Part shown: piece by piece, positions 12,902 through 60,160 of the stretch
Layout of the letters: each line of letters opens with the position of its first letter
Numbering within the stretch: the stretch's first letter is position 1
Assembly: GCA_964493415.1 (NCBI GenBank)
Contig: CAZBND010000009.1
Location: forward strand, 13,866 to 77,865
Source: an uncultured Planctomycetota bacterium
GTDB taxonomy: Bacteria > Planctomycetota > DG-23 > CAZBND01
DNA length: 64,000 nt
Direction: 5' to 3'
Translations under genes and position numbers: made by a program
The notes under the pieces: generated by a model
Seen by the model: only the letters and a program-made list of their open reading frames with translations
The model's database searches: none
What the model was told of the DNA's origin: nothing

Positions 12902-12904
12902 CGG

Positions 12905-13939: not shown

Positions 13940-13941
13940 AG

Positions 13942-16360: not shown

Positions 16361-16379
16361 GCCGCTAGGAGGACCCCTC

Positions 16380-33289: not shown

Positions 33290-33532
33290 TCACTCGGCTA
33301 TACCCACCTCTTGAGCTATGTCCACGAGTTCTCGTCGGCTCAACTCCTCCAGAGCCTTGCCGCGCTCCTTGAGCTTCTCGTTGAACTTCAGCGACTTTTC
33401 CTGCATGTGCTCGTGGGTCTCCTGGGACCCGCCGAAAAGCAGGAAATTCTCCCCGCGCGTGAACCGCTTGTGCCCGTCCTTGCAGTCCAGCCCCAGCCCG
33501 AGAATCCACGCCTTCTCTCGTTTTGTGGACAT
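33290..33532 (-). CDS. Small hypothetical protein with C-terminal Rho_N/SAP-like helix-extended-helix motif
   Basis: An 80-aa ORF, MSTKREKAWILGLGLD...GKALEELSRRELVDIAQEVGI. It is the only non-antisense part of the 397-aa ORF-track ORF 33290..34483, whose remainder is antisense to ogg. ATG at 33532. Confidence 0.4.
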   Translation of the reverse strand: MSTKREKAWILGLGLDCKDGHKRFTRGENFLLFGGSQETHEHMQEKSLKFNEKLKERGKALEELSRRELVDIAQEVGIAE

Positions 33533-33556
33533 GCCGCACGTCCCCGCGAGCTTTGC

Positions 33557-33586
33557 TTGACTAGTTCTTAACCATGCTGTTATTAT
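33557..33586 (+). promoter_or_regulatory. sigma70-like promoter for ogg
   Basis: TTGACT (33557-62), 17 nt, TTATTA/TATTAT (33580-86). It sits in the divergent gap between the small minus-strand ORF and ogg. Confidence 0.4.
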
Positions 33587-33634
33587 CCCATCGGGTCTTA
33601 CCCACGTCAACTTTAGAAAGACGAGCGCCTCCAC

Positions 33635-34513
33635 GTGCCAAGGCTCACTGTCAGGGACTTCGACCTCAGGAGCACCGTCGAATGCGGTCAGCTCTTCACC
33701 TACGCTCGCTTGGGCGAGTGGTATTACATCACGGGGCAACAAAAACTGTTTGCGATCAGGCAGAGGGAAAGGGAGGTCGAATATCGAGGGGTGGACGAAG
33801 GTTTCATTCGCCGGTTCTTTAGACTCGATGATGACTTGGTCGATATAAGGCGATCGCTGAAGAAGGACCCGATAGTCGCCCGCGCTTTTTCCGAGTCCAT
33901 GGGACTCAGGCTGGTCCGGCTGGAACTGTGGGAAGCGATCGTGGGCTTCATCTGTTCCCAGGCGTGCAACATCCCGCGGATAAGGACAGTCCTCAAGGCG
34001 ATAGCCGAAGCATGGGGTGGGAGAGTCGAGCTCGACGGATTCGTGATGTATCTCCTTCCTCGCCCCCAGGCCCTCCCGGGCGAAGCCAAGCTGCGGGAAG
34101 CCGGTGCCGGATTCCGCGCGCGCTACCTCAAACAGGCAGCGGAGCGCGTCGATGATGCGCTGTTGGACCGTTTGCGGCGCATGGACTACCATTCGGCCCG
34201 TCGTACGTTGCTTTCCATTCCCGGCGTCGGCCCGAAAATCGCCGATTGTGTGTGTCTCTTTTCGCTCGGATTTCTCGCGGCTTTCCCCATAGACACGTGG
34301 ATTCGCAAGATGATGCGAGATTTCTATTTCCACGGCTCGAACGCGACAGACCAGCGGATCAGAGACTTCGGCCAAGCCCACTTCGGGGAATACGCCGGTT
34401 ACGCACAGCAGTACCTTTACGCCTTCTACAGGAGGTGCCCGCTGGAGCGATGGAACGCCGCAGCCGCAGATGGTAGAATGCACTTCCCTTCAGGCCGGAA
34501 CGCCGAAAGGTAA
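33635..34513 (+). CDS. ogg: 8-oxoguanine DNA glycosylase / AP lyase (Ogg family, HhH-GPD)
   Basis: HhH-GPD motif LLSIPGVGPKIADCVCLFSLGF with the catalytic Lys/Asp region, 292 aa, GTG start. Confidence 0.8.
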   Translation: MPRLTVRDFDLRSTVECGQLFTYARLGEWYYITGQQKLFAIRQREREVEYRGVDEGFIRRFFRLDDDLVDIRRSLKKDPIVARAFSESMGLRLVRLELWEAIVGFICSQACNIPRIRTVLKAIAEAWGGRVELDGFVMYLLPRPQALPGEAKLREAGAGFRARYLKQAAERVDDALLDRLRRMDYHSARRTLLSIPGVGPKIADCVCLFSLGFLAAFPIDTWIRKMMRDFYFHGSNATDQRIRDFGQAHFGEYAGYAQQYLYAFYRRCPLERWNAAAADGRMHFPSGRNAER

Positions 34514-38551: not shown

Positions 38552-39331
38552 TTGAGGTGCATCGGCATCATCAATCAGAAAGGGGGGGTAGGCAAAACAA
38601 CCATCGCTGTCAATCTGAGTGCCGGATTGGCGACGTGCGGCCGAGAAGTATTGTTGATTGACCTTGACCCGCAGGCTAACTCGACTACGGCTCTGGGCTT
38701 CGAGGCGGATTTCAGTCGGCCAAGCGTTTATGACGTAATGGTCGATCGCGACAAGTCGCTCTCTTCGGTAATATCGGCGACCCATGTGCGGGGACTTCGG
38801 TTGGCCCCCTCAGACCTCAATCTTGCCTCCGTCGAGATTGCCCTCGCAAACTACCCGGGCAGGGAGGCGGTTCTTCGACGAAAGCTTGCTGGTGGTCTTT
38901 CCGGGTTCGACTATTGCATAATCGATTGTCCTCCTTCTCTGGGCCTCCTTACTGTCAACAGCCTGACTGCCGCCGATGAGGTGATAATTCCGATTCAGAT
39001 GGGATACTTCGCCCTCGAAGGGGTCAGGCAGTTGTTGCGGATAATCGACTTGGTAAAGGAGAACCTTGAGCACAGAGCACTACGAATCTGCGGCGTGGTT
39101 TGCAACTTTTTCGACGCGCGCTCTCGCCTTAGCAAAGAGGTCCTAAGCAAGGTACGCGAGCGCTTCGGCCCGCTTGTCTTCGATGCCGTCATTCGCAGGA
39201 GTGTCGCCCTTGATGAAGCAGCCAGCCACCACCAAACGATCTACGAGTACGCGCCTCGCTCTCGGGCGGCGAGGTCGTTTAGGGACTTGGTTCTGGAGGT
39301 AATAGGCAGTGAGTCCGGCCCTCGGGGATGA
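38552..39331 (+). CDS. ParA/MinD-family ATPase embedded in chemosensory operon (ParC/PpfA-like)
   Basis: Deviant Walker A NQKGGVGKTT, 259 aa, TTG start 18 nt after the CheY stop. It sits directly upstream of the cheW genes. Confidence 0.8.
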   Translation: MRCIGIINQKGGVGKTTIAVNLSAGLATCGREVLLIDLDPQANSTTALGFEADFSRPSVYDVMVDRDKSLSSVISATHVRGLRLAPSDLNLASVEIALANYPGREAVLRRKLAGGLSGFDYCIIDCPPSLGLLTVNSLTAADEVIIPIQMGYFALEGVRQLLRIIDLVKENLEHRALRICGVVCNFFDARSRLSKEVLSKVRERFGPLVFDAVIRRSVALDEAASHHQTIYEYAPRSRAARSFRDLVLEVIGSESGPRG

Positions 39332-40493
39332 CCCGCTTAAAGACAGCCTATTCAAAAAGACCGAGCTGCCGGTCTCCAAGTCCGAAATGGAGACCGCGGT
39401 CGCGCGCTTTGCCAACGCCTCCTCCGCGCCGTCGCCCGCATCGCAGCGTACTCGCTACATACTGGGCTTTAAGCTGGGCGACAGGGTCTTCGGGGCCGAG
39501 ATATCCCAGGTGGATACAGTCGTGAGAATGGTTTTCATTTCTCCCGTTCCTATGGCACCACAGTTCGTGGATGGCATCGTTAACGTCCGTGGCAACGTCG
39601 TGCCGGTCATTTCCCTGGCCAGACTCTTCGGGCTCCAGCATGGCAGGCCTCTCCTTGCTCGTCGGGTACTCGTGGGACGCTCAGGAGAGGAGCAAATCGC
39701 AATCGTGGTTGATTCGGTTTCTGAAATAATGGACATAGACCAAGCAGAGGTCACGCCCCCCTCGCCCTCGATGCCGATGGCAAGCGTGTGCGCCGGCGTC
39801 GCCAAATTGAGGCAGGCCGAGGGGGAGCTCATGATGATCTTAGACTTCGGAAAACTCCTCTCACTTGAACAGAAGGCTCTTCTGGAGGGCAAACTAGATC
39901 TCGAAGAGGTCTCGGCGGAACTAAGAGAAGAACAGCCGACGGGAGTTGCCGAGACCGAGCATGATGCAACAACTAACGTCCTTCGCAGGCGGGCCGAGTT
40001 GCTTAGTCTGCCGGTCGTCGATATCGAAAGGCAAACGCGCCGGATACTCACTTTCTCCATAGGTATGGAAGTCTACGGCTTGGACATAGCGACGGTCTGC
40101 CGGATACTCCGGACACGGGAGGTGACCCAGCTACCTTGTGCTCCAAACTACGTCCAAGGTGTGGTAAACTTCGACGGCGAAATTACTCCTGTCGTCGACC
40201 TCAAGGGCATGCTCGGCTTGGCGAAGGCGACGACGCAGCCGAGCGGCGGCAGGCTGGTCGTCGTTGAACACAAAGGCACGCTGGCCGCGTTCGCGGCCGA
40301 CGAGGTGTTCGACGTGCTGGAGATCGATCTCGAAAAAATCGAGGCGCCCTTGTCGACCATAGAGAAGCTAAGGGCTGACTTCATCGATGGAGAAGTACAG
40401 GTCGGGGAGAAACTGGTGATAATCCTGAACTGGCGAAACATAATGCTGTCCTGGGAGATGGGCAAGACGGCGGACGTCGGCGCCCGGACCTAG
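39309..40493 (+). CDS. cheW: Tandem CheW-domain coupling protein
   Basis: Two complete CheW modules ([23 protein letters not shown]… and [22 protein letters not shown]…). GTG start overlapping the parA-like 3' end. Confidence 0.8.
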
Positions 40494-40539
40494 CCGGGCG
40501 CCGCCACAGGTCGTCCCTCTAGGAGGAGGAACCCGAGCG

Positions 40540-42597
40540 ATGTTCAGATCCATCCGCGCGAAAGTGATGTTTGCCACGGCGGTCAACCTCGTGCTTCTCT
40601 TCGCAGTATTGTTGCTGATAGCTATGAATAGGGTCCGAGCAGCGGAGGCGGAGCGGAGGGAACACACCGAGATGGAGATTCAACATCTCCAGGGTGAAAG
40701 GAAGGAACTGGGCAAGTCGGTCACCTCCTCCGTGGCGAAGCAGGTGGCTGACGTATTGGCGCAAGGCTGGGACGTCGCCCGCGTGAATGAAATCCATGAT
40801 GACGAGAGCAGCAAGTTCCCCGCCATAAAGGAGATCGTGATTCGCGCAGCCGATAAGGCTACCGTCCCCACTTCCCCGGACGTGTCGAACGAACTGCTCG
40901 CCCAGGCAGCGCCACGCTCGGGCTCTCCCGACACCACCTACTGGAGGGATGACCTCCAAGACCCCGAAGTCTACGGCTACGTGCTGGAACCCATCACGAC
41001 CGAGCAAGGCGAGGTCAAAGGCCACGTTATCGCTTTCTTGAAGAGGCCGGGCGCGGCTCGGGACCTGGAAGAAGGCGTAATGGACGCCGGCACGATACTG
41101 GTGTACTTCTTGACCGGCTTCGCAGCAGTCGCCATCATAAGCATAATCTTTACGGAGCTGTTCCTCAGCCAAGGCCTCCTTAAACCGGTCCGTCTTCTGA
41201 CCGAGGCCGTAGGAAGAATTGTCAGGACTGGAAGTGTTTCAGAGACCATAGACGTCCGATCCAGTGACGAGATAGGCCGCCTCGGCAAGATGGCCGCCCA
41301 GATGCAGACAAACCTCAGCAGAATCGCAGACCATGCACATGCTATGGCCGAGGGCGACCTGAGCCAGGACATCCAAGTCCACGGGGATATGGCCGACGCA
41401 TTGCGCGAGATTCAGTCAAACCTCCTTACCATCACGGAGCAAGCCAGGGTCTACGCGCAAGGCGAGACGCCTGGAAAGCTCACAGTGAAAGGAGACCTGG
41501 GCAATGCATTTCGGGATATGGCGGCGCATGTTGATCAGATTCGCGAGCATGTCCAGGCAATCTCGCGAGGGGATATATACCACGAACTGAGGACTTCAGG
41601 TCAGCTTGCAGAAGATTTCCGCGAGATGACGCAGAATCTCAGAAAGATCGCAGAGGAAGCCAAAATCATCACTGCGGGTGACCTCACGCGGGCAGTCGAT
41701 GCCAAGGGAGAGCTTCCTGACGCCTTTAACGAGATGGTCAGGAGCCTGGCCTCACTCGTCAGCCAGATCCGCGACAGCGTTGGGCGCTTCGGCGCTCTGC
41801 TTGATGAGATCGTTCAGTCGGCAGAGCAGCAGGCAACCTACGCCACCCAACAGATCACCTCGCTGCTTGCGACTTCCTCCACGTCCGAGCAAATCGCCGC
41901 CACGTCTCGCCAGATCGCGAACAACGCGTCCGCCGTGGCTGCCATCGCGACAAGAACTCTCGACACGGCTCACGAAGGCAGAGAAGGAATGGACGAGGCG
42001 ATTCGGGCCATGGAGGACATCCGGGCGGGCACCGAAGAAGCCTCCAGCAGGATTCTCGCCGTCGAGCAGCGCGTCCAGGGAATCGGAGACGTCGTGGGCC
42101 TCATCAATGACATCACCGACCAGACGAATCTTCTTGCGTTGAATGCCGGCATAGAGGCCGCTCGGGCCGGCGAGGCCGGAAAAGGTTTCGGCGTTGTTGC
42201 GCAAGAGATCCGCCGCCTGGCCGAAAGCGTCATGGTACGTACCAAAGAGATAACCGACATCATTGACGAGATCCGAAGCTCCACCAGCGCCGCGGTGATG
42301 TCCAGCCAGGAAGAGAGAAAAAAGGTCGAGACCGGAATGCAGATTGCCACCAAGGCAGCGGACTCCCTGGAAGAAATCGTCGAAATGGCCGAGAAAACCG
42401 CAGAAGCGGCGAAGCAGATAAGTGTGTCAACACAGCAGCAGCAAAGCGCATCTGAACAGCTTTCCGCCACTCTTAAGGAAATTACCGAGGTCACCCAGCA
42501 GTCAACCGTAGGCTCCAAGAACACCATGACCTCCGCCGAGAAGCTTCGTCAGCTTGCCGGCGAATTACAGAGAGGCATCGGGCAGTTCCGAATATAA
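40540..42597 (+). CDS. mcp: Methyl-accepting chemotaxis protein with poly-HAMP array
   Basis: TM1 and a ~160-aa periplasmic segment, then TM2, five consecutive HAMP-like repeats (GDLS..I.V.GD..DAL...), and a C-terminal MCP signalling domain ([33 protein letters not shown]). AGGAGGAGG SD. Confidence 0.9.
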
Positions 42598-42621
42598 AGC
42601 TTCAGAAAAGCAGGAACGATC

Positions 42622-45372
42622 ATGACCGATATAGACCTTTCCGGCTTCATGGGCCGATTTAGAGACGAAGCAAAAGAGCTTCTGCAGAAGCTCACTGATG
42701 GCCTTCTCGCCCTCGAAAGGGACCCAAACGACAAGGAAGTCGTCGCGGAGATCACGCGGGCTGCCCACACGTTGAAGGGAAACGCGGGATTCCTCGAACT
42801 CACCGAGATAAACAAGATCGCGCACGCTATGGAAGATGTCTTGGCCGCCATTCGCGATGGCGAGGCCGAAATAACGCCGGAATTGTTCGACCTGCTTCTC
42901 TCCGCGCGCGATGAGATTGACAATCTCGTCCAGGCGACAGCCTCTCAAGAAACGGTTTCGGTTGATGCCGAAGGCATAGCCCAGCAATTGAGAGAGGCCG
43001 CTACGAAAAAGGAGGCGCCTTCTCCGCCGCACGGCGGCGAGCCTGCCGACGAGGCTGAAGAGGGCGAGGGGACGCAGAAAAAAAAACGTGCCACGGTAAC
43101 CCATAAAGGCAGACACAAGGCGGGGCCTGACAAACGCACTCTCCAGCACTTTCGCTCGGTCTGTTCCCGCATCACGCAACGACTCCGTGGCTCCCTCGCC
43201 GCGCTGGCGAAACCCTCGGATTTAGCCAAGATGGCTCAGGATGCTCACCGGCTATGCGACGCAGCGGCTTTGCTCGAGATCGACGAAGCCGTTCAACTCT
43301 CCGACGCTTTGGCCGCTGTGCTGGAAGCCTCCGAAGCAAGGGCGGCACTACCAACCCAAGAAGGGGTCGCCCTCATAGCTGAGTCAATAGACGCGCTTGA
43401 CGCGGCAAGTTCCCCCGAAGACCTTGCGAAACTGCCCCCGCTGGCCGAAAAGCTTTCTGCCTTGCCCGCTTCCGGCCCTTCGGCCGCCGCTTCTCCAGCC
43501 CAACGCCCGTCTTCAAAGCCGCCCGGAGGCGGTCACGCCTTACCTGAACGCACCGACAAGCAGCAAAGGATGGCTCGCGAAGAAACTCCAGACACCGTTC
43601 GTGTAAGCACCTCGCGCGTCGACACGCTGGTTAACCTCACCGGCGAGATAATCATCAACCAGCGGAAGGCAGAGGAGGAATCGGTCGAATTCAAAGAGAT
43701 TCTCGCATTATCCCGGCAAGAACGAAGACAGTGGGCATCTTTGCGTAGCAAGATGCTCGAACTGGCGCGCGTGGAGCCTGCGCTTGTTCCTTCACAGGGG
43801 AGGACTGCTCAGGCGGGAGAAGAGGAGTCGCTTGAGGAGCTCCTCGAAAGCCTCGAACTTGTAAGGACCGAGTTGAGCGACAGGTTGGCGAAATTCTCGG
43901 CCAGGTTCGAGGAGGTCGTCGGCAACCTCGGCGTCACTTCTACCAGGCTTCAGGAAGATGCCACCAGGATGAGGATGCTGCGTCTCGGCGTGTTGTTCGA
44001 CGTAATCCCCCGCGCCGTACGAGACATGGCGCGCCAATTCGGTAAGAAGATCGAGTGCAAGATCTCCGGCCAAGAAACCCTCCTGGATAAGAAAATGTTG
44101 GAGGGTCTGCGCGGTCCGCTCGTCCACATCATCAGAAACTCCGTAGATCACGGGATCGAGTACCCCCAAGAGCGCATTGAGGCGGGCAAGCCCGAGACCG
44201 GCCTAATTGAGATGACCGCCCAGCAGGAAGGTGACCGCGTAACTGTTCAGATTCGCGACGACGGCGCTGGTATCGACCCCGAAAAGGTCATTCGGAAAGC
44301 TCTCGAGCAGGGGATCGTTGACTCGGTTGAAGCCCAGACCATGTCCCCTGAGGCCGCCCTGTACCTGGTGTTTGAGCCCGGATTCACCACGCGGGCAGTC
44401 GCAAGCGATGTCTCGGGGCGCGGCGTCGGTATGGATGTTGTGCGCAAGGATATCGAGGACCTCAAGGGTGAAGTGACTCTGGCCTCCGAGGCGGGCGCGG
44501 GAACCACCGTATCCATAAGACTGCCGCTCACGCTTGCAGTCATACCTACTCTCTTGGTTGAGTGCACCGGACAGAAGTATGCGCTGCCTTCGTCATCCGT
44601 GAAAAAAGTCATCGAGATCAGCCCCAGTGAAATCCATTCGGTCGAGGGACGCGAGGCGATCGTCTGCGATGGCAGGACCGTTCCCCTTGTTTCAATGAAA
44701 GACGTGTTACGTCTGCAAGGCGAGTCCGCTGCACCCGCCCGGGGCAAACTCGATGTCGTAATAGTGTCCCATGCCCAGGACGAAATCGGGTTCCTTGTCG
44801 ATACTATCGCAGGAGAGCAGCGTCTGGTCGTAAAAAACCTCGCGGGCAACTTGGGTCACATAGACAACGTTGCCGGCGGGGCCAGCCTCGGGACAGGAGA
44901 GGTGGTCATAATACTTCACCTTCCCGATCTGATTGCTTCGGCCAAAGCCTCCGCTCCCAGGAGACTTGTGGAGGAGCTGACAAAGCGGCTCGCGCCGGTT
45001 GAAAGGCGCGGCAGAATCCTCGTCGTCGAAGACTCGCTCACCACCCGCGAGTTGCAGCGGAGCATCCTCGAGGCAGCGGGATATCAGGTCGAAGTCGCCG
45101 TGGACGGACTTGACGGCCTGCGCAAGGTCAGCGACGCCAATTACGATTTGGTGATCACGGACGTCGCCATGCCCAGGATGGACGGCTTCGAAATGGTCCA
45201 GCGCATAAAGCGCGATCCTAGAAGGAAGGCCGTACCCGTGATCATCGTCACTTCACGTGCCACAGAAGCTGATAAGAAGCGCGGCATGGCCGTCGGCGCA
45301 GACCAATTCATCGTGAAGAGCCAATTCGATCAGTCCACCTTCCTCGAAATGGTATCCCAATTTGTTGGATGA
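42622..45372 (+). CDS. cheA: Hybrid histidine kinase CheA with C-terminal receiver (FrzE-like); tandem Hpt
   Basis: Hpt-1 (AAHTLKGNAGFLEL), an Ala/Pro/Glu-rich linker containing a second Hpt-like block (DAHRLCDAAALLEID), a dimerisation domain, an HATPase domain (G-boxes), a CheW-like domain and a REC domain (ILVVEDS…DLVITDVAMPRMDG). 916 aa. Confidence 0.9.
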   Translation: MTDIDLSGFMGRFRDEAKELLQKLTDGLLALERDPNDKEVVAEITRAAHTLKGNAGFLELTEINKIAHAMEDVLAAIRDGEAEITPELFDLLLSARDEIDNLVQATASQETVSVDAEGIAQQLREAATKKEAPSPPHGGEPADEAEEGEGTQKKKRATVTHKGRHKAGPDKRTLQHFRSVCSRITQRLRGSLAALAKPSDLAKMAQDAHRLCDAAALLEIDEAVQLSDALAAVLEASEARAALPTQEGVALIAESIDALDAASSPEDLAKLPPLAEKLSALPASGPSAAASPAQRPSSKPPGGGHALPERTDKQQRMAREETPDTVRVSTSRVDTLVNLTGEIIINQRKAEEESVEFKEILALSRQERRQWASLRSKMLELARVEPALVPSQGRTAQAGEEESLEELLESLELVRTELSDRLAKFSARFEEVVGNLGVTSTRLQEDATRMRMLRLGVLFDVIPRAVRDMARQFGKKIECKISGQETLLDKKMLEGLRGPLVHIIRNSVDHGIEYPQERIEAGKPETGLIEMTAQQEGDRVTVQIRDDGAGIDPEKVIRKALEQGIVDSVEAQTMSPEAALYLVFEPGFTTRAVASDVSGRGVGMDVVRKDIEDLKGEVTLASEAGAGTTVSIRLPLTLAVIPTLLVECTGQKYALPSSSVKKVIEISPSEIHSVEGREAIVCDGRTVPLVSMKDVLRLQGESAAPARGKLDVVIVSHAQDEIGFLVDTIAGEQRLVVKNLAGNLGHIDNVAGGASLGTGEVVIILHLPDLIASAKASAPRRLVEELTKRLAPVERRGRILVVEDSLTTRELQRSILEAAGYQVEVAVDGLDGLRKVSDANYDLVITDVAMPRMDGFEMVQRIKRDPRRKAVPVIIVTSRATEADKKRGMAVGADQFIVKSQFDQSTFLEMVSQFVG

Positions 45373-45378
45373 GCTGCA

Positions 45379-46419
45379 ATGATTCGCGTTCTGGTCGTTG
45401 ATGATTCCGCCACGGCAAGGGAGCTTTTGAAAAAAGTCCTCGAGAGCGACCCGGAAATCGAGGTCGTCGCTAGCGCCTCCAACGGGCGAGAGGCAATAGA
45501 GTTGGTCCGTCGGGTCAAACCCGACATCGTCACGATGGACCTCCTGATGCCCGTCATGAACGGGTTCGAGGCAACCGAGCACCTGATGGCCTTCGATCCT
45601 CTTCCCATACTGGTAGTGACGGGCTGCCCGGTCGGAAGGGAAGCCGACCTCGCGTTCAAGGCTCTCGAGCTTGGCGCATTGGAAGTAAATGAGAAACCGG
45701 AGAGCTCGTCTTTGCAGAAACCCACCCGGCGCTCGATGGCTCTGATAAGAAACGTCAGAACGCTCTCAAAAGTCCAGGTGATAACCCACCTTCGAGGCAG
45801 GCGTGGTGCGGCGGACAGGCACGCTCACCCTCCCGAAGCAAAGGGAGAAAGGAGGCTTGTGGTCATAGCCTCCTCCACCGGCGGACCGCCCGTGCTGGAG
45901 AAGATCTTCTCCTCCTTGCCGCCCGAGTTCCCCGCTCCCATAGTCGTTGTTCAGCACATCGCTGACGGTTTCACGGGAAGGCTCGTGGAATGGCTCGGGA
46001 AGTCCTCGCCTCTTCCCGTCCGCGAAGCCGGTCACAGACAGCCTTTGAATGGCGGTACCATAAGCCTCATCCCGGACGGGCATCATGGTACAATAACCAG
46101 TAATGGAGCCATCTCCCTTAACACCGACCCCCCTGTTGACGGCGTGCGGCCGTCGGGCGACCTGCTCTTCAAGTCGGCCGCCAGGGCCCGCGGCCAAGAT
46201 GTCGTCGCAGTCGTCCTCACCGGAATGGGACACGACGGCGCGGAGGGGGCGAGAGTGGTGAGGGCGTTCGGAGGTACCGTAATCGTCCAGAACAAAGAGA
46301 CTTGTGCGATCTTCGGAATGCCCAGAGCGGTCATTCAGGAAGGGCTTGCTGACGCCGTAGTACCGGATGTTGATATTTCCGCCGAGCTGGTCAAAGCCAT
46401 ATCGAGAGCCGAACGGTGA
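45379..46419 (+). CDS. cheB: Chemotaxis response regulator protein-glutamate methylesterase
   Basis: REC domain (RVLVVDDSATAREL...) plus the CheB methylesterase catalytic domain (VVIASSTGGPPVLEKI, HDGAEGA). Confidence 0.9.
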   Translation: MIRVLVVDDSATARELLKKVLESDPEIEVVASASNGREAIELVRRVKPDIVTMDLLMPVMNGFEATEHLMAFDPLPILVVTGCPVGREADLAFKALELGALEVNEKPESSSLQKPTRRSMALIRNVRTLSKVQVITHLRGRRGAADRHAHPPEAKGERRLVVIASSTGGPPVLEKIFSSLPPEFPAPIVVVQHIADGFTGRLVEWLGKSSPLPVREAGHRQPLNGGTISLIPDGHHGTITSNGAISLNTDPPVDGVRPSGDLLFKSAARARGQDVVAVVLTGMGHDGAEGARVVRAFGGTVIVQNKETCAIFGMPRAVIQEGLADAVVPDVDISAELVKAISRAER

Positions 46420-46539
46420 AATCTCTCCGCCCCGTCGCAATGGGGCCGATTCCCGTTGTTCGTGTGTTGGCGCTTGTTCGGTAGGGTCATCAGGGCCGTC
46501 GCCCGGTCGGATGCTCATCGTTAGGAGGCAACTTCACAG

Positions 46540-48042
46540 ATGGCTTTTCACCCAAGAGCACAACTGGGACTTTCCAGAGCTGAGCTTGAGCCTTTCGAAA
46601 CATTCGTCTTCAACCGAACCGGATTCCGATTCGACAGGCAACGTCGGATAGCTCTTGACGTTGCGATCCTCTCAAGAATGTCCGCTTTGAGGATTGCAAC
46701 ATCACGGGAGTACTACAACTTCCTTCGCTTCCATGAAAAGCGACACGAGGAATTTCAGGAGCTGCTTGGTCTTGTAACCGTCAGCGAAACGTCTTTTTTC
46801 CGAAACCAGCCTCACTTTGACGCCCTCCACCGGCGCATATTGCCCGAGCTTTTTGAGAGAAATCAGGCCGGCACCAAGGCGGTTCGGATCTGGAGTGCCG
46901 GCTGCTCCACCGGCGAAGAGCCTTACTCCATCGCTATAGCTTGCCTCGAGGCGCTGCCGGCGCTTCAAGCTTGGAACACCGAGATTCTCGGAACCGACAT
47001 CGTCAGACGCGTTCTTACCGTTGCCGAGAAAGGCGTTTACTCCTCTCACTCGCTTCGCCAGATGTCTCCCGCCGTTATGGATGCTTACTTCAGTAAGACC
47101 GACCAGGGCCAATATGAACTCTCCCCGCGCGTGAGGAAAATGGTCAAATTCCTTCAGGCGGATGTGACGCGCGAACCGAGAACAGGCGTCGTCGGCGACG
47201 GTTGGGACATAATCTTTTGCCGCAACGTCCTCATATACTTCACTGACGAAGTCTTCCATTCAATAGTCCGGCACTTCCACCAGATTCTCAATCCGGGGGG
47301 ATACCTGTTCCTTGGCCATGCGGAGATGTTGTCCGGGATGGTTGAGAACGAATTTCTCTTGCGGGAGATGGAGTCGACATTTGTGTATCAGAAGCCGCCG
47401 GCTGAACAGCCTGGAAGGACCTTGCGAGTAGCTCATCCTCCCCGCAAACACCCAAGCCCGCCCCGCCCGGCTCCCCGGACGGCCGAATCCAAACAGCCTG
47501 AAATCAAGCCCACACATTCGCCTGTCTTGGCGAGAGCTCACCAGCACTATGCCTCAAAACGCTACGACAGGGCTCTGGAAGAAGTTCTCCAAGTGCTTCA
47601 ACGAGACCCCACCAACATCGATGCTCTCTTCCTCGTCGGCAAGATTCACGCCGACATGGGACACGGCGAGGAGGCCGCCGAGAAACTCCACCAGTTGACT
47701 GTGCTCTCGCCTCTCCATGCCGAGGCCTACTACCATCTCGGGATCGTCTACGTACGTCAGGGGAAGTCCGAGGCTGCGATCGATGCGTTCAAGAGAGCTA
47801 TTTACTCGGACAGCGAATTCGGGTTGGCCCACATGCACCTCGGCAACGTCTACCGCCAGAAAGGACGCCCCAGGGAGGCGTTGCGCAGCTACAGGAATGC
47901 CATTGCTGCCTTGACCAAGACTCCCGAAGATAGGCTGATGCGCATCTCTGACGGTTTCTCGAAGGATGTCCTTATCGGCACGTGCAGGGCCTACATGGAT
48001 GATTGTCGCGAGAACCTCAGCTCCATCGAGTACTTAGGGTGA
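46540..48042 (+). CDS. cheR: Chemotaxis protein methyltransferase CheR fused to TPR repeats (FrzF-like)
   Basis: CheR N-terminus and SAM-binding domain (IWSAGCSTGEEPYSIAI, IFCRNVLIYF), then C-terminal TPR repeats (AEAYYHLGIVYVRQGKSEAAIDAFKRAI...). TAGGAGG SD. Confidence 0.85.
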   Translation: MAFHPRAQLGLSRAELEPFETFVFNRTGFRFDRQRRIALDVAILSRMSALRIATSREYYNFLRFHEKRHEEFQELLGLVTVSETSFFRNQPHFDALHRRILPELFERNQAGTKAVRIWSAGCSTGEEPYSIAIACLEALPALQAWNTEILGTDIVRRVLTVAEKGVYSSHSLRQMSPAVMDAYFSKTDQGQYELSPRVRKMVKFLQADVTREPRTGVVGDGWDIIFCRNVLIYFTDEVFHSIVRHFHQILNPGGYLFLGHAEMLSGMVENEFLLREMESTFVYQKPPAEQPGRTLRVAHPPRKHPSPPRPAPRTAESKQPEIKPTHSPVLARAHQHYASKRYDRALEEVLQVLQRDPTNIDALFLVGKIHADMGHGEEAAEKLHQLTVLSPLHAEAYYHLGIVYVRQGKSEAAIDAFKRAIYSDSEFGLAHMHLGNVYRQKGRPREALRSYRNAIAALTKTPEDRLMRISDGFSKDVLIGTCRAYMDDCRENLSSIEYLG

Positions 48043-48045
48043 TCC

Positions 48046-48783
48046 ATGTGTGCGACCTTTCGTCTCGACGCGCAAGTTGCCCTCGTAACCGGAGGGGGGA
48101 GGGGAATCGGAAAAGCAATTGCCCTTGCCTTAGCAGCCGAGGGGGTCAGCGTCGCCGTTGCCTCAAGGACCTTGTCTGAATTGCAGGAGGTAGCGGCGCT
48201 GGCCGAGCAACTCGGGGCGAAGGCCCTCCCGATTCAGGCTGATGTCACGAAGGCGGACGAAGTAGACCGCATGATCGCGCGCACGGAATCCAGCCTGGGC
48301 CCGCTCGACCTTCTTGTCAACAATGCCGGCCGACTTCCTCTCGCGACCATACTCGAAACATCGGAGGAGGACTGGGATAAGACCACCGCAGTTAACCTCA
48401 AGGCCGCCTTCCTCTGCTCCAAAGCGGCTCTGGCCCGAATGGCCGAACGCAGGCGCGGGCGAATCATCATCATTTCGTCTCTCGCCGGCAAGAAGCCTTA
48501 TCCTGGACAGAGCGCCTACTGCGCCTCGAAGCACGGATTGGAGGGATTTGCCAAAGTGCTTGCGATCGAGGCAAAGGAATACAACGTCAGGGTGCAAGTG
48601 GTCTCGCCGGGAGGCGTGAACACCAAGCTCACCAGAGACGCCCGGAAAGACGTCGACGTCTCTGAATGGATGCGCCCCGACGAGGTCGCACGAGCCGTTA
48701 TCTACCTTTGCTCTCAGGAAGGCACCGCCGTAAGTGATGAAATAGTCCTGAGGCGCTGGGAGTCCGCTCCCTGGACTCACTAG
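48046..48783 (+). CDS. SDR-family oxidoreductase (FabG-like)
   Basis: TGGGRGIGKAIA Rossmann motif and S...YxxxK catalytic triad (YCASK); 245 aa. Confidence 0.8.
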   Translation: MCATFRLDAQVALVTGGGRGIGKAIALALAAEGVSVAVASRTLSELQEVAALAEQLGAKALPIQADVTKADEVDRMIARTESSLGPLDLLVNNAGRLPLATILETSEEDWDKTTAVNLKAAFLCSKAALARMAERRRGRIIIISSLAGKKPYPGQSAYCASKHGLEGFAKVLAIEAKEYNVRVQVVSPGGVNTKLTRDARKDVDVSEWMRPDEVARAVIYLCSQEGTAVSDEIVLRRWESAPWTH

Positions 48784-56057: not shown

Positions 56058-58088
56058 TCAACTTCTTCCCGGCCTGTTCAACGCCGCAATCCTCTTCGCC
56101 ACTTCTTCGATGGGTAGCTCGTCCGTCTCCACTTTCAAATCTGCTGCCGCTTCGTAGGTCTTCATCCTTGCCGCCATCACCTCTTCGATCTCGGCCAAAG
56201 CGTCCGCCCCCAAGAGTGGCGGCCTGAGTTCACTCGTCTTTCCGTCGTCTACCATACGCCTGCGTACGGTGTCAGGGCGGGCGCTTAGCAAGGCGACCTT
56301 ACCTGCTCTCTTCATCGCATCAACGTTTGCCTCTCGCAGAACCGCTCCGCCTCCCGTTGCCACCACTTGGCCGTCCCCATCGCACAGTCTTCCCAGCACC
56401 GCCGTCTCCATGTCCCTGAAGTACTCTTCGCCTTTGCGTGCGAACAGTTCGCTTGCGGTCATGCCCGACTCCGCCTCGATCATCTCATCCATGTCCACGA
56501 ACCCGTAGCCGAGCAACTCGGCCGCTCTGCTTCCCGCGACGCTCTTGCCAGTGCACCTGTAACCGGTCAAAAAGATGTTCCCTTTCTTTGCCTTCCCGAA
56601 GATGCGCCCTTCGGCGGCTTTCTGCATCACTTCCCGCGGTGCCCTCTTTCCGGTCCATATCTCGAATTGCCTCACCGCCTGCCGCACAAACATTTCCATC
56701 CCCCCCAGGGTGAAACAACCCCGCGCTTTGGCCTCTCGCATCAACCGCGTTTCAGCCGGATTATACACCGCATCGAAAACCAGCATTCCAGACCTCAGAA
56801 CAGATGAAGGCACTGGAGACTCGTCCACTCGCGGATGCATTCCCACCGGCGTCGCGTTGATGAGCAACTGCGGTCTCAATCCAACGGCCTCATCAAGCGT
56901 GCCCCATTCCGATCCTGTCTCTTCCGCGAGCTTCACCGCCCTCTCCAAGTCCAGGGTCCGGTTGAGAATACGCACCTTCGCGCCCTTGTGCTTCAGCCCG
57001 AACACGATAGCCCTTGCGGCCCCGCCGGCACCCAGCACCACCACGTCCATTCCACGGAGGCCCTCGCTGCTGCCAAGCTCGCGCCTCGCCGCTTCCTCCA
57101 ATGGCGCGATGGCCGCCTCCCAATCGGTGTTGGTGCCCAAAAGCTTGCCGCCCTTCCCAAAAACCGTGTTCACCGCGCCGATTCTCCTTGCCATATCGTC
57201 CACAGACGAAAGCTCGCGGATTATCCCCTCCTTATGAGGCACCGTCACGCTGTAGCCCTTGATGTCCAGCTTCTTGAACGTCCTCAGGAACTCCTTGATG
57301 TCCTCAACCTCAAACGGGACGTAAACGGCATCAGTTCCTGTCGCGTCAAAAGCCGCGTTGTGAACCGCCGGGCTTGCGCTGTGCGCCACGGGGTTTCCAA
57401 TGAGACCGAATATCCGGCTGTGCCGCCCGGTCTTTCCCGCGCGGTAAATCTCCCGCAACTCTCCGGCGGTGGGCTGACCGGGCGCCGACTCCCTCCCCGC
57501 TTCCAGACAGCCGAAGGTGAACACCGACCCGAACTTCTCCGCGAGGATTCTGCTCACCAGGCCCAGCCTTCCCATGCAGAACGCCACTGTGGGAACCTCC
57601 GAGTCATGCAAAAGCTCAAGAACCCGGACATTGTCCGTAATGCTCTGCGCGGTAGTTACCAGCTTGACGATATCTGCTCCCGCAGACTTCAACCGGGTCA
57701 GGATGGGCTCAAGCTCCACGGGCGTCCCGCTGAAATCATGGCGGGAAACGATTACTTTGGCGCTTCTCCTCCTGAAACCTTGGGCGGCGGTTAGCTCGAT
57801 GTCAACGTAGTCCGCCCCCAGGCGATCTGATTTTTCCAGGAGGCCAATCCGTTCTTCTTCCGAGCCCTGGAAGTGCCCGCCTTCGGTGGCCGGACGGCAG
57901 GTCGCTACCAGCGGGAGAGCAGGGCGGTGTGCGAATATCCTTTCCAGTGACGGATTTCGGACGTAATCCAACCGGACCTCGATTGCATCCGCGAGTGCGG
58001 CGGCGCGGTGCATATCCAGTATCACGGACTCGGTGGTTGGCGCGGTGATGGGGACGCAAAGCATACGATTCTCTCCTGAAGCGGGCAC
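56058..58088 (-). CDS. aroDEK: Trifunctional shikimate-pathway fusion: 3-dehydroquinate dehydratase (type I) - shikimate dehydrogenase - shikimate kinase
   Basis: An N-terminal type-I DHQase TIM barrel (MLCVPITAPTTES..., Schiff-base Lys region). A central AroE (FGLIGNPVAHSASPAVHNAAF; GAGGAARA Rossmann). A C-terminal shikimate kinase P-loop (IFLTGYRCTGKS). 676 aa. Confidence 0.8.
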   Translation of the reverse strand: MPASGENRMLCVPITAPTTESVILDMHRAAALADAIEVRLDYVRNPSLERIFAHRPALPLVATCRPATEGGHFQGSEEERIGLLEKSDRLGADYVDIELTAAQGFRRRSAKVIVSRHDFSGTPVELEPILTRLKSAGADIVKLVTTAQSITDNVRVLELLHDSEVPTVAFCMGRLGLVSRILAEKFGSVFTFGCLEAGRESAPGQPTAGELREIYRAGKTGRHSRIFGLIGNPVAHSASPAVHNAAFDATGTDAVYVPFEVEDIKEFLRTFKKLDIKGYSVTVPHKEGIIRELSSVDDMARRIGAVNTVFGKGGKLLGTNTDWEAAIAPLEEAARRELGSSEGLRGMDVVVLGAGGAARAIVFGLKHKGAKVRILNRTLDLERAVKLAEETGSEWGTLDEAVGLRPQLLINATPVGMHPRVDESPVPSSVLRSGMLVFDAVYNPAETRLMREAKARGCFTLGGMEMFVRQAVRQFEIWTGKRAPREVMQKAAEGRIFGKAKKGNIFLTGYRCTGKSVAGSRAAELLGYGFVDMDEMIEAESGMTASELFARKGEEYFRDMETAVLGRLCDGDGQVVATGGGAVLREANVDAMKRAGKVALLSARPDTVRRRMVDDGKTSELRPPLLGADALAEIEEVMAARMKTYEAAADLKVETDELPIEEVAKRIAALNRPGRS

Positions 58089-58159
58089 TCAGGGATTATA
58101 TTTGGGCCTCGGCCGGACCGCAACCCCGCCGGCCCCTGCCGGCCGAAGGGACTTCGGGC

Positions 58160-58188
58160 TTGACCTTCACCTATGCCGCTGATAATAT
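58160..58188 (+). promoter_or_regulatory. sigma70-like promoter upstream of corrinoid-protein gene
   Basis: TTGACC (58160-65), 17 nt, TAATAT (58183-88). AGGAGG SD at 58222-27, ATG at 58232. Three GCCGGCC-type palindromes lie immediately upstream (58111-58144). Confidence 0.4.
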
Positions 58189-58231
58189 TTGAGGTTTGAG
58201 GATGGACGACAGCATTTCTTCAGGAGGAAAC

Positions 58232-58864
58232 ATGGCGGATCTTCAAGCGATAGCGGACAACCTTATCAATGGAAAAGCTCAGGAGGTCAAAGACCTCGTT
58301 AAGCAAGCGTTGGATGGGGGAACTGGGCCGGGCGAAGTGTTGAACCAGGGACTAATCGCAGGAATGAACGTCGTGGGCAGGAAGTTCAAAGCCAACGAGT
58401 TCTATGTGCCCGAGGTCCTCATCGCCGCCCGCGCGATGAAGTTCGGCATGGAGGTCCTCCAGCCCGCGCTGGAGGCCGGCGGGATCAAGCCTATTGCCAA
58501 GGTCGCCATAGGCACGGTCAAGGGCGACCTCCACGACATAGGCAAGAACCTCGTTGCTATGATGCTTCGAGGCGGAGGGTTCGAGGTGGTCGACCTTCTG
58601 ATCGATGCTGAGGCCGAAGCGTTCGTCAACGCCGCCAGAGAGGGGTGCCAGTTGATCTGCATGTCGGCTCTCCTCACCACCACGATGCCTCAGATGGCCG
58701 AGGTCATAAAGGCGCTGAAGGCGGCGGATATCGACGGCGTAAAGACGATGGTCGGCGGCGCGCCCGTCACACAGGAGTACGCTGACGAGATCGGCGCCGA
58801 TGGCTATGCGCCTGACGCAGCGTCGGCCGTTGAGAGGGCCCGCGAGCTTCTCGGCGTAGCCTGA
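58232..58864 (+). CDS. Cobalamin-binding corrinoid protein (MtbC/MttC-like; B12-binding_2 + B12-binding domains)
   Basis: An N-terminal helical B12-cap, then a Rossmann-like domain with the DxHxxG lower-ligand motif (GDLHDIGKN) and SALLTTTMP. ~210 aa. Confidence 0.8.
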   Translation: MADLQAIADNLINGKAQEVKDLVKQALDGGTGPGEVLNQGLIAGMNVVGRKFKANEFYVPEVLIAARAMKFGMEVLQPALEAGGIKPIAKVAIGTVKGDLHDIGKNLVAMMLRGGGFEVVDLLIDAEAEAFVNAAREGCQLICMSALLTTTMPQMAEVIKALKAADIDGVKTMVGGAPVTQEYADEIGADGYAPDAASAVERARELLGVA

Positions 58865-58878
58865 AAAGGAGTACAGGC

Positions 58879-59841
58879 ATGCAGCTCCCGGACATCAAGG
58901 AGAAGTGGACGAGCCAGGTCAACGAGCTGGTCCTCGGTGCTACCAAGGACGAGGGCGGCACTCGGACCAGCACCGTCACAATTGGCGGAGCCAAGACCCT
59001 TCCCTTTATCGCCTTTGAAGGCGATCCCGGCAACAAGATCGTCGTAGCCATGGACGTTCTCGACATTCCTCCAACCTACTGGCCTGAAGTCCTGCAGGAG
59101 CCCTACCGAGACGTATACGAGGACCCCGGCGCTTGGGCCAAGAAATGCGTCGACGATTTCGGTGCCGATATGATCTGCGTCAGGCTCGAGGGCATTCACC
59201 CGGATCAGGGAGACTACGGCGCTGACCACGCCGTGAAGGCCGTACGTGCGGTTGCCCAATCCGTGGGGGTCCCGCTAATCATATGGGGCTGTGGGGACGA
59301 CGAGAAGGACAATCAGGTTTTTCCCAAAGTCAGCGAGGCGCTGAGGGGAGAGAAAGCTCTCCTCGGCCCCGTCACGCAAGACAATTACAAGACCATCACC
59401 GCGGTCTGCCTCGCCGACGGACATGCGCTGATTTCACTTGCCCCCATCGACATCAACATTGCCAAGCAGGTCAATATCTTGGTTTCCGATATGGACTTCC
59501 CGCTCTCGCGAATTGTGATGTTCCAGGCCACCGGAGCGCTGGGATATGGGATAGAGTACGCCTATTCCATTCAGGAGCGGGAACGCCTGGCCGCCTTGAC
59601 CGGAGACAAGATGATGGCCATGCCCGTCATCTGTGACGTAGGTTATGAGACCTGGCGCGCCAAAGAGGCTAAGACCCCCGACGATGAAGCCCCGCAGTGG
59701 GGTCCCGCGTCCTATCGCGGCCCGATGTGGGAGGCCGCCACGGCCATAACTCTGCTTCAGTCCGGGGCTGACATACTGAGAATGCGTCACCCCAAGGCCG
59801 TCTCTGTAGTCAAGAAACTTATCGAAGAGCTTTACGCCTGA
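58879..59841 (+). CDS. CdhD/AcsD-like TIM-barrel protein (corrinoid/Fe-S protein small-subunit family) - tentative
   Basis: 320 aa. Blocks VLGATKDEGGTRT, VPLIIWGCGDDEKD, NYKTITAVCLADGH, PIDINIAKQVNIL, MPVICDVGYETWRAKEA and LLQSGADILRMRHP match what I recall of the CODH/ACS delta (AcsD/CdhD) family. The call is from memory, not a search. The gene lies 15 nt downstream of a corrinoid protein. Confidence 0.45.
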   Translation: MQLPDIKEKWTSQVNELVLGATKDEGGTRTSTVTIGGAKTLPFIAFEGDPGNKIVVAMDVLDIPPTYWPEVLQEPYRDVYEDPGAWAKKCVDDFGADMICVRLEGIHPDQGDYGADHAVKAVRAVAQSVGVPLIIWGCGDDEKDNQVFPKVSEALRGEKALLGPVTQDNYKTITAVCLADGHALISLAPIDINIAKQVNILVSDMDFPLSRIVMFQATGALGYGIEYAYSIQERERLAALTGDKMMAMPVICDVGYETWRAKEAKTPDDEAPQWGPASYRGPMWEAATAITLLQSGADILRMRHPKAVSVVKKLIEELYA

Positions 59842-60115: not shown

Positions 60116-60160
60116 TTGACGCTTATCTGTCCTGCGCGTATACTGAGATTGAGTCTCAAT
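60116..60160 (+). promoter_or_regulatory. Promoter plus palindromic operator upstream of fur
   Basis: TTGACG (60116-21), 17 nt, TATACT (60139-44), followed 3 nt later by the perfect 6-1-6 inverted repeat ATTGAG-T-CTCAAT (60148-60). The start codon of fur is at 60175. Confidence 0.45.

Follow-up and report, generated by a model that had tools for sequence, protein, structure and literature searches.

The gene acsD, which encodes the small (delta) subunit of the corrinoid iron-sulfur protein (CFeSP), was found in a 64-kb stretch of planctomycetal DNA, hereafter the window, directly behind a gene for a small vitamin B12-binding methyl carrier. The acs cluster, to which acsD usually belongs, is among the most rigidly syntenic operons of anaerobes, and both proteins of the pair appear to be ordinary representatives of known families and are strongly conserved. 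We put at roughly one half the probability that a canonical AcsD has been relocated to an operon that it shares with a folate-linked methyl carrier, AcsC and AcsB being encoded elsewhere. The relocation would be that of one family-level lineage of anaerobic Planctomycetota.

Genomic context of the pair

Both genes lie on the plus strand. A 210-aa corrinoid (B12-binding) methyl carrier of the MtaC/MtbC/MtgC type (PF02607, PF02310) is encoded at 58232-58864, and the 320-aa TIM-barrel protein AcsD (PF03599, NF003376, 4DJD_D) at 58879-59841. The list of open reading frames had put the start of the corrinoid gene at TTG 58196; homologues and the ribosome-binding site AGGAGG (58222-58227), which lies 4 nt 5' of the start codon and is invariant in the relatives L093 and L004, place it at ATG 58232. 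The 14-nt intergenic spacer (58865-58878), read from the sequence, carries the ribosome-binding site of acsD, AAAGGAG (58865-58871). In L093 and L004 the spacer measures 16 and 18 nt, respectively, with AGGAG in each, and the two genes are probably co-transcribed. A Pfam domain search of the window agreed with the flanks named in the preliminary description, which had been made from the letters alone: aroD-aroE-aroK on the minus strand, with their ATG at 58064 divergent from the pair, and fur-feoB-dtxR/feoA on the plus strand.

The small corrinoid protein

The first gene product had been called a B12-binding protein with a DxHxxG motif, and its domain matches support this call, with a helical cap (PF02607, 77 bits, residues 5-76) followed by a Rossmann domain (PF02310, 91 bits, residues 90-200). 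The residues D99-L-H101-D-I-G104, S145-A-L147 and G175-G176 have canonical spacing, and from this DxHxxG...SxL...GG motif the protein is predicted to be of the His-on, base-off type. Its closest solved relative is 1Y80, a cobalamin-binding protein of Moorella (E 5e-59). It is 60-70% identical to widespread stand-alone MtaC/MtbC-type orthologues, from which the clade differs by few specific changes (V126A, K130A, I174V and D201E). The NCBIfam cut-offs were all missed (MtgC_2, 187.6 against 370; TIGR02370, 176.7 against 215.3; MtbC, 168.7 against 350), and the stand-alone orthologues L091 and L122 also fell short (184.8 and 197.4). Judged by its sequences, the family is related to the characterised substrate-specific groups, yet distinct from them.

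An origin of the small protein as a detached B12 domain of AcsC was considered and rejected, since tblastn of the Kuenenia and L176 AcsC sequences against the window gave no hits (E 1e-3 and 0.01). The suggestion that the pair might represent a split corrinoid couple thus fails: the protein is without AcsC similarity and its nearest relatives are stand-alone MtaC-type proteins.

The neighbourhoods of its orthologues were compared in 76 metagenomic relatives, namely those of L097-L175 for which the ORF call was usable. RACo-like activases are neighbours of the corrinoid gene in 12 loci, URO-D-family (MtaA-like) genes lie near it in nine (12 ORFs), and a 5-FTHF cyclo-ligase with FTCD_C occurs near it in five. 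A MeTr-like gene is present in two loci, L122 (NF005719, 352.8 bits) and L159 (a homologue at the tblastn level), where the slot directly downstream of the corrinoid gene is taken by this MeTr-like pterin-binding TIM barrel. Such company, comprising RACo-type activases, MtaA-like URO-D proteins, methyl-THF:corrinoid methyltransferase and folate-interconversion genes, points to a folate-linked carrier role. No cognate methyltransferase or activase was found by tblastn beside the corrinoid gene in the window or in the flanks of its lineage.

Identity and integrity of AcsD

The second gene product had been assigned tentatively to the AcsD/CdhD family. The HMM search placed it there rather than in an unrelated TIM-barrel family, with 122.6 bits for PF03599 (CdhD; cut-off 24.8, residues 27-263) and 408.7 bits for NF003376 (cut-off 280, residues 1-319); the comparison AcsDs from Kuenenia, L176 and L013 scored 414.1, 401.5 and 373 for the latter model. 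The cut-off of TIGR00381 was reached (253.6 against 252.9). That of NF040759 was missed (266 against 430), as it also was by AcsDs from complete clusters (Kuenenia 290.6, L176 267.6, L013 248.6). The protein is 57% identical to the small subunit of the Moorella CFeSP (4DJD_D, E 1.2e-109 over residues 6-318), matches 2H9A_B with an E value of 1.6e-98, and is 67% identical to the AcsD of Kuenenia, which is itself encoded in a full acs cluster. In the tree it falls inside the Planctomycetota AcsD clade without a long branch.

Of the alignment columns with at least 98% conservation among 80 other AcsDs, the window clade retains all 46, and of those with at least 90% conservation it retains 95 of 102, which is in the same range as clades with complete clusters; only two of these 102 columns carry fixed differences. 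AcsD/CdhD is reported to be a main docking surface for AcsC/CdhE and acetyl-CoA synthase (PMC13370988). The constraints on the protein appear unchanged, which suggests unchanged partners, and the retention of the near-invariant positions, together with scores like those of complete-cluster AcsDs, argues that this AcsD probably still does its canonical job. The novel methyl-transfer couple that was raised in the preliminary description does not follow from a protein with all near-invariant positions in place and ordinary scores.

Two other fates of the gene were examined. A decaying remnant is ruled out by dN/dS, invariant-column retention and HMM scores. Accelerated evolution or neofunctionalisation has left no signal in AcsD, and the substitutions in the corrinoid protein are minor.

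Distribution and persistence of the pair

The AcsD-anchored comparison covered 80 species genomes, those whose AcsDs are closest, with the window lineage among them. In 79 of them acsD adjoins other acs genes, most commonly in a full cooS-acsB-acsC-RACo-cooC-acsD-acsE cluster, and the pairing of acsD with a small corrinoid gene is found only in the window's own lineage (1 of 80). When the comparison was anchored on the corrinoid protein, the pairing again appeared in one of 80 metagenome loci, which belongs to the same lineage, and the arrangement is therefore as atypical as it had been taken to be. Of the 79 other genomes only L074 has the corrinoid gene within 10 kb of acsD, and there it is on the opposite strand.

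Relatives of the window carry the pair between the same flanks, with identities for the corrinoid protein and AcsD of 92.3 and 90.3% (L096), 88.0 and 88.1% (L093-L095), and 80.0 and 80.3% (L004-L007). The arrangement has been retained across genus- or family-level divergence during which feoB, dtxR-feoA and the acsD-fur spacer changed, and it is kept where feoB has shrunk to an 86-aa stub. Both genes are under strong purifying selection (dN/dS 0.05-0.09 for the corrinoid gene and 0.05-0.08 for acsD, with dS saturated). Between the window and L004 both are 80% identical, compared to 60-69% for purC, aroDEK, feoB, DUF2851 and dprA.

Insertions and fragments were observed in other acs clusters (L018, L025, L051, L177). 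The detached fragment at L051, RACo-cooC'-acsD-fhs, comes from a MAG that also has a main cluster (L053), and is a precedent for broken acs clusters.

Search for the remaining acs genes

The window was searched by tblastn with CooS, AcsB, AcsC, RACo, CooC and AcsE from Kuenenia and L176, and no acs gene besides acsD was found in the 64 kb, in line with the earlier remark that no other acs or methyltransferase gene is adjacent. AcsC, AcsB, CooS, AcsE and RACo were likewise not found by tblastn in the flanks (±10 kb) of L004, L093 and L096. The preliminary description had allowed for a complete cluster elsewhere with an AcsD of its own; only one AcsD locus was recovered from GCA_964622675.1, the one representative genome of the lineage, and thus no second AcsD was seen there.

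A canonical acs cluster from the same metagenome as L093 (L177) has an AcsD among the closest to that of the window and was considered as the missing cluster of the lineage. It was rejected as belonging to the same organism because of its GC content (65% against 57%), a tetranucleotide correlation of r 0.53, and its own AcsD. The AcsC of L177 was used to seed a wider hunt, in which hits were sorted against known loci and by amino-acid composition. The four lineages that were followed (L178/L179, L180, L181 and L182) were all foreign canonical clusters with their own AcsD, and about 13 hits were left without assignment. A search of the literature returned nothing relevant on an orphan acsD or on AcsD paired with a corrinoid protein.

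Possible roles of the pair

In the reading we favor, acsD would have been excised from its usual cooS-acsB-acsC-RACo-cooC-acsD-acsE cluster with its protein left unmodified. The small protein would serve as B12 carrier in a methyltransferase system for methyl exchange with tetrahydrofolate, and AcsD would remain the small subunit of CFeSP, partnered by an AcsC encoded elsewhere in the genome. AcsC-AcsD would take methyl groups from methyl-THF and hand them to acetyl-CoA synthase, and two B12-dependent methyl carriers belonging to one C1 route would be co-expressed from the operon. We infer both that AcsC and AcsB are present elsewhere in the genome and that the two carriers are functionally linked. 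Several observations weigh against relocation. The window and the flanks of three relatives yielded none of AcsC, AcsB, CooS, AcsE or RACo for this lineage. The order of the acs genes is otherwise very rigid (79 of 79 other loci), so that a relocation of acsD by itself, with the other genes still functional, would be unusual. Its position 14 nt behind another corrinoid gene requires either coincidence or a functional reason, and the near-identical conservation of the two genes is the pattern expected of direct physical partners.

Direct partnership is a possible explanation, although a clearly less probable one. AcsC would have been lost, and AcsD would be the TIM-barrel partner of the small corrinoid protein in a minimal, Fe-S-less, His-on analogue of CFeSP. 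The Rossmann domain of the small protein would replace the C-terminal B12 domain of AcsC, and the whole carbonyl branch may have been lost as well. AcsD would cap or dock the corrinoid and could present it to acetyl-CoA synthase or to a methyltransferase; alternatively, AcsD could be a methyltransferase barrel of the pterin type in its own right. A tight operon (14-18 nt, with a ribosome-binding site for acsD) that is kept over saturated dS while its neighbours decay is consistent with such a couple, as are the shared level of conservation, above that of the neighbouring genes, and the fact that AcsC was not found for the lineage in the window, the flanks or the L177-seeded search. Weak PF03599 matches are also obtained for the acsE genes of canonical clusters (Pfam Pterin_bind), and since L122 and L159 have the MeTr-like barrel in the slot of acsD, AcsD here stands where those loci have a related barrel. 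In archaea, moreover, pterin methyl transfer is carried out by CdhD/E itself, with no separate MeTr (PMC13370988). However, the loss of the large TIM-TIM interface with AcsC should have relaxed or reshaped AcsD, and no burst of change is seen in it (none of 46 near-invariant positions altered, two fixed differences in 102, no long branch). The corrinoid protein, for its part, keeps its own cap domain with minor clade-specific changes, and no activase is nearby. A lineage without AcsC, in which AcsD and the MtaC-type protein form a two-component carrier feeding acetyl-CoA synthase or a methyl transfer outside the Wood-Ljungdahl pathway, seems to us slightly less probable again.

It is unlikely that the adjacency has no function, with gene order scrambled and acsD having landed behind a constitutively expressed corrinoid gene of a separate pathway. 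Both proteins do resemble their unpaired orthologues, the position of the corrinoid gene varies in relatives (after a TPR gene and before dnaA in L091, before a pseudouridine synthase gene in L092), and interrupted or fragmented acs clusters occur elsewhere, as noted above. Yet two B12-dependent methyl carriers would hardly come to lie 14 nt apart by accident when L074 alone among the 79 other genomes has them within 10 kb, and chance does not readily account for an arrangement that outlasted the changes around it.

Promoters and upstream region

The preliminary description had proposed a TTGACC-17-TAATAT promoter for the pair, and a promoter scan recovered it at 58160-58188 on the plus strand. 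This sigma-70-type element has a -35 box TTGACC (58160-65), a 17-nt spacer and an extended -10 box TGaTAATAT (58180-88), with 9 of 12 matches plus the TG extension, and is probably functional; both hexamers are kept in L093 and L004 (88 and 80% protein identity, respectively), whereas the surrounding spacer is not. On the minus strand, 58095-58123 probably holds the promoter of aroD-aroE-aroK, with a -10 box TATAAT (58100 to 58095) and a -35 box TTGCGG (58123 to 58118) separated by 17 nt. The corresponding plus-strand blocks, ATTATA and CCGCAA, are among the few that are invariant in the spacer when the window, L093 and L004 are aligned, and the scan missed this promoter because its -35 box matches at only three of six positions. 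The 5' UTR of the pair is about 40 nt long and unstructured, its fold being no better than that of shuffled sequences. No cobalamin riboswitch or other RNA element was matched by Rfam in the window, and no tRNA was found there.

Between the divergent promoters lies a G+C-rich stretch (58111-58144) that we judge to be non-functional. Of the three GCCGGCC copies first described, two are exact (58128-34 and 58138-44) and the third (58111-16) is only GGCCGG. The repeats are located upstream of the -35 box and therefore outside the transcript leader; the "palindrome-rich leader" is spurious. The window contains 20 GCCGGCC sites, where 22.2 would be expected, and a gap of at most 10 nt between two of 20 randomly placed sites has a P of about 0.06. 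Control of the pair by these palindromes, as an attenuator or a repeated regulator-binding site, is suggested by two exact heptamers 10 nt apart, with a similar hexamer 17 nt further upstream, in a region of 75% G+C between divergent promoters, but is very improbable for a motif at chance frequency that is not transcribed from the conserved promoter, is absent from the aligned spacers of L093 and L004, where the promoter elements are nonetheless kept, and lies in a region (58100-58160) whose RNA fold is no more stable than that of shuffled sequence (z = +0.48).

Comparison with known systems and significance

The window AcsD aligns along its full length with the small subunit of the AcsC-AcsD complex (CFeSP/CoFeSP) of Moorella thermoacetica and Carboxydothermus hydrogenoformans (4DJD, 2H9A, 4C1N). 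Unlike in that system, acsC is not adjacent, and the neighbour is a 210-aa His-on-type carrier with its own cap, without a TIM barrel and without a [4Fe-4S] domain; CFeSP holds its corrinoid base-off and His-off. The protein belongs to the same clade as the AcsDs of the Planctomycetota cluster found in Kuenenia stuttgartiensis and its relatives, cooS-acsB-(clp)-acsC-RACo-cooC-acsD-acsE, but its gene stands apart from every other member of that cluster. The corrinoid protein has the same two-domain architecture and DxHxxG...SxL...GG motif as 1Y80 (Moorella), MttC (7XCN), MtmC (3EZX), the Desulfitobacterium O-demethylase protein 4JGI and MtaC (2I2X), and the association of its orthologues with RACo-type activases and URO-D/MeTr-like methyltransferases recalls O-demethylase and methylotrophic systems. 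In contrast to corrinoid genes that accompany a cognate methyltransferase, that of the window lineage has neither a methyltransferase nor an activase nearby, and is followed by acsD instead.

Dehalococcoides mccartyi, in an account attributed to Zhuang et al. 2014, reportedly keeps AcsB and AcsCD while CODH and AcsE are absent, and so retains acs parts for C1 supply outside a complete pathway. It keeps AcsC and AcsD together, whereas the window shows acsD only, beside a different corrinoid protein. To our knowledge, AcsD has so far been described only as a partner of AcsC.

If the remaining acs genes lie elsewhere in these genomes, the pair is a modest case of operon plasticity, and a hint that a conserved, uncharacterised corrinoid carrier of the Planctomycetota shares the methyl route of CFeSP. 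If they are absent, AcsD would have taken on a further existence beside another class of B12 protein, the reading of partial Wood-Ljungdahl gene sets in metagenome-assembled genomes would change, and the pair would offer a natural minimal system for the handling of a protein-bound corrinoid by a TIM barrel. Should the two proteins prove to be direct partners, they would constitute a previously undescribed corrinoid methyl carrier of two components, an analogue of CFeSP without its Fe-S domain.

Identity of the two genes

Both proteins of the pair, which lies on the plus strand between the divergent aroD-aroE-aroK gene and fur-feoB-dtxR/feoA (from ~60175), are ordinary members of known families. 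The first gene (58232-58864) encodes a 210-aa corrinoid protein. Homologues and gene callers place its start at ATG 58232, after an AGGAGG at 58222-58227, and the TTG at 58196 given by an ORF lister is not favored. The protein combines the B12-binding cap (PF02607) and Rossmann (PF02310) domains of Pfam and carries the cobalamin motif D99xH101xxG104, S145xL147 and G175G176. The second gene, acsD (58879-59841, plus strand), begins 14 nt past the first and is preceded by AAAGGAG. Its 320-aa product is assigned to CdhD/AcsD by Pfam (122.6 bits) and aligns end to end with NCBIfam NF003376, 'acetyl-CoA decarbonylase/synthase complex subunit delta' (408.7 bits, cut-off 280). Residues 6-318 align with the crystal structure of the Moorella corrinoid iron-sulfur protein (CFeSP) small subunit (4DJD_D, E 1e-109), and the Carboxydothermus small subunit (2H9A_B) aligns as well. 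The gene calls and family assignments of the preliminary description were thus both right.

The corrinoid protein belongs, as an orthologue at 60-70% identity, to a large family with members in Planctomycetota, 'Brocadiia' and Armatimonadota, and only a small number of conservative substitutions specific to its clade set it apart from stand-alone members. Among solved structures its closest relative is the cobalamin-binding protein 1Y80 of Moorella thermoacetica (E 5e-59), followed by methylamine corrinoid proteins and a Desulfitobacterium O-demethylase corrinoid protein, and all substrate-specific NCBIfam models score below cut-off. The orthologue is a lone gene after a TPR protein gene in two long contigs. 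Among 76 metagenomic relatives whose neighbors were surveyed, a RACo-type [2Fe-2S]/ASKHA activase lies nearby in 12 loci (immediately upstream in 10), URO-D-family proteins of the MtaA type account for 12 ORFs in nine loci, and 5-formyl-THF cyclo-ligase with an FTCD_C cyclodeaminase occurs in five; a formyltransferase is another recurrent neighbor. In one metagenomic locus, L122, a methyl-tetrahydrofolate:corrinoid methyltransferase follows immediately downstream (NF005719, 352.8 bits), and L159 has a tblastn-level homologue of it. These recurrent neighbors indicate that the family is the B12 carrier of a methyltransferase system linked to tetrahydrofolate C1 metabolism. No activase, URO-D, methyltransferase or folate partner gene was found in the window or the flanks of its lineage.

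The folate cluster headed by the orthologue (L122 9992-13001; also L133, L136, L142 and L159) runs corrinoid protein, MeTr-like methyltransferase (L122 and L159), 5-formyl-THF cyclo-ligase and FTCD_C cyclodeaminase; we know of no description of it as a module.

Promoters and palindromes in the upstream spacer

A palindrome-rich leader with three GCCGGCC copies had been proposed for the pair. Two copies are exact (58128-34 and 58138-44) and the third is only a GGCCGG hexamer. The window holds 20 copies of the heptamer, where shuffled sequence predicts 22, the chance that two of 20 random sites fall within 10 nt is ~0.06, and the palindrome stretch is 75% G+C. The region 58100-58160 is predicted to fold no more stably than shuffled versions of it (z = +0.48), and the palindromes are missing from the orthologous spacers of two lineage relatives, L093 (88% protein identity) and L004 (80%). 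Four short blocks are invariant across the spacers of the window and these two relatives. One comprises a -35 TTGAC and an extended -10 TGnTAnTAT; this promoter (58160-58188), already noted in the preliminary description, is also recovered by a promoter scan. Another is the AGGAGG ribosome-binding site of the corrinoid gene. On the minus strand, TATAAT (58100 to 58095) and TTGCGG (58123 to 58118) stand 17 nt apart and, 30 nt upstream of the aroD-aroE-aroK ATG at 58064, form a probable divergent promoter of that gene in the same spacer as the corrinoid operon promoter. The palindromes lie in the interval that separates the divergent promoters, on the upstream side of the -35 box, so they belong to no leader. 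We treat them as G+C-rich filler. The actual 5' UTR of the pair is ~40 nt and unstructured, and no Rfam family, cobalamin riboswitches included, matches it.

Other features of the locus

The aroD-aroE-aroK fusion (56058-58064, minus strand; 668 aa) joins type I dehydroquinase, shikimate dehydrogenase and shikimate kinase and is kept throughout the lineage. In the relative L094 (7840-9835) it is called as two ORFs with SKI separate, which a frameshift or an assembly error may explain. Downstream of acsD, fur is closely preceded by a TTGACG-17-TATACT promoter whose -10 box is overlapped by the palindrome TGAGATTGAGTCTCA (60144-60158; site 60139-60158). Three relatives (L096, L093 and L004) have this palindrome unchanged, in an acsD-fur spacer of ~330 nt that otherwise cannot be aligned. 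The palindrome may be a Fur-type autoregulatory operator, although its sequence is dissimilar to the classical E. coli Fur box.

The window also encodes a V/A-type ATPase operon (subunits D, B, A, E, I and C; 5802-14014, minus strand), a complete chemotaxis cluster (ParA-like, CheW, MCP, CheA-CheY, CheB and CheR-TPR; 38552-48783, plus strand) and glycoside hydrolases. Together with PFOR and rubrerythrin in relatives' flanks, this gene content points to a motile fermentative anaerobe. Four ORFs of 260-413 aa with high GC3 (14567-15694, 16260-17501, 24247-25029 and 33290-34483) have no Pfam match at E 1e-5.

Distribution and conservation of the pair

The arrangement is rare and selectively maintained. 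The closest AcsD relatives were scanned with one genome per species (GTDB), and every neighborhood of the 80 loci was typed by tblastn. In all 79 other loci acsD adjoins other acs genes, mostly in a complete collinear cluster, in Planctomycetota, Spirochaetota, Omnitrophota, Armatimonadota and others; the arrangement of the window recurs only in L007, whose record is that of L004 (GCA_964622675.1, 80% identical, from an uncultured Planctomycetota MAG). The Kuenenia AcsD, 67% identical, lies in cooS-acsB-clp-acsC-RACo-cooC-acsD-acsE, and two metagenomic AcsDs (L176 and L177, 69-70%) are likewise in canonical clusters. In the converse scan of metagenome contigs with the corrinoid protein, acsD follows the corrinoid gene in only one of 80 loci, L096 (92%, same lineage). 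In both scans the pairing is confined to this lineage, and its description as an orphan holds over the 64-kb window and the sequence flanking the pair in three relatives. Loci of the lineage that carry the pair together with its flanks are L087-L090 (identical), L096, L093-L095 (88%) and L004-L007 (80%). In L093-L095 feoB is cut to an 86-aa N-terminal stub (L093 12440-12700) and dtxR-feoA is absent; fur and the pair are intact.

For both genes dN/dS is 0.05-0.09 in all three pairwise comparisons (dS 1.3-2.2). Between the window and L004 both proteins are 80% identical, against 60-69% for housekeeping neighbors (purC, hisH-like, pilD, aroDEK, feoB, DUF2851 and dprA); these values rule out a decaying remnant for either gene. 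AcsD is nested among its Planctomycetota counterparts, its branch is of ordinary length, and its HMM scores match those of the Kuenenia, L176 and L013 AcsDs. Of the columns conserved to 98% or more in other AcsDs its clade keeps 46/46, and of those conserved to 90% or more it keeps 95/102, a retention not below that of clades whose acs clusters are complete. Judged by its sequence, AcsD has no sign of new function.

A separate observation concerns L177, where a 453-aa DUF8575 protein (7306-8667) lies between RACo and acsD, the usual place of cooC, in a canonical cluster.

Possible role of the pair

CFeSP is an AcsC-AcsD heterodimer in which AcsC contributes the [4Fe-4S] domain, a TIM barrel and the corrinoid-binding domain (PMC13370988). 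Bacteria depend on a distinct AcsE to transfer methyl groups from H4F, a step that the archaeal protein performs unaided, and in the methyl-transfer state the small subunit is a main contact of acetyl-CoA synthase (PMC13370988). No conserved position is lost in the AcsD of the window, which also changes at a lower rate than housekeeping genes, and with this constraint retained the most economical reading is that it would still pair with AcsC and dock on acetyl-CoA synthase. We infer, at a probability of about one half, a canonical acsD that may have moved into an operon with another corrinoid methyl carrier that serves the same C1 route, acsB and a presumed acsC being encoded elsewhere in the genome.

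Detached acs fragments do occur. L051 (7440-12833) holds RACo, a truncated cooC (147 aa), a second acsD and fhs (formate-THF ligase), and L053, from the same MAG (Sedimentisphaerales Zod_Metabat.1213), holds cooS-acsB-acsC-cooC-acsD-acsE without RACo; the explanation is a cluster that was split or duplicated, or else a mixed bin.

It is rather unlikely that AcsD and the small corrinoid protein instead form a direct couple, as the preliminary description had suggested. This reading draws on the tight operon, the near-identical conservation of corrinoid protein and AcsD (80.0/80.3, 88.0/88.1 and 92.3/90.3%) and the persistence of the pair while neighbor genes decay. A MeTr-like TIM barrel also fills the position behind the orthologous corrinoid gene in L122 and L159, and canonical acsE members of the MeTr-like family match PF03599 (CdhD) weakly. 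A split AcsC fails, since the corrinoid protein has no detectable similarity to AcsC and so is not a detached domain of it. That the two genes adjoin purely by accident is improbable.

An AcsC of the window's lineage was sought. The L177 AcsC served as query because the window AcsD is the best match in the set to that locus's AcsD, and the 120 matches were sorted by comparison with every known locus and by amino-acid composition. The four lineages looked up (L178/L179, L180, L181 and L182) yielded no AcsC of the window's lineage, and ~13 of the 120 matches were left unplaced. All four have canonical clusters with their own AcsD and come from organisms that differ in G+C (61.5-67.7%, against 57-59%). 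L180, L181 and L182 are also clearly distinct in tetranucleotide signature; L178 and L179 are near the window's (r 0.79-0.83). L178 has an AcsD-like gene fragment of its own downstream of cooC, and L179 stops short of that position. If the genomes of the lineage were to lack both AcsC and AcsB, the importance of the finding would be much greater.
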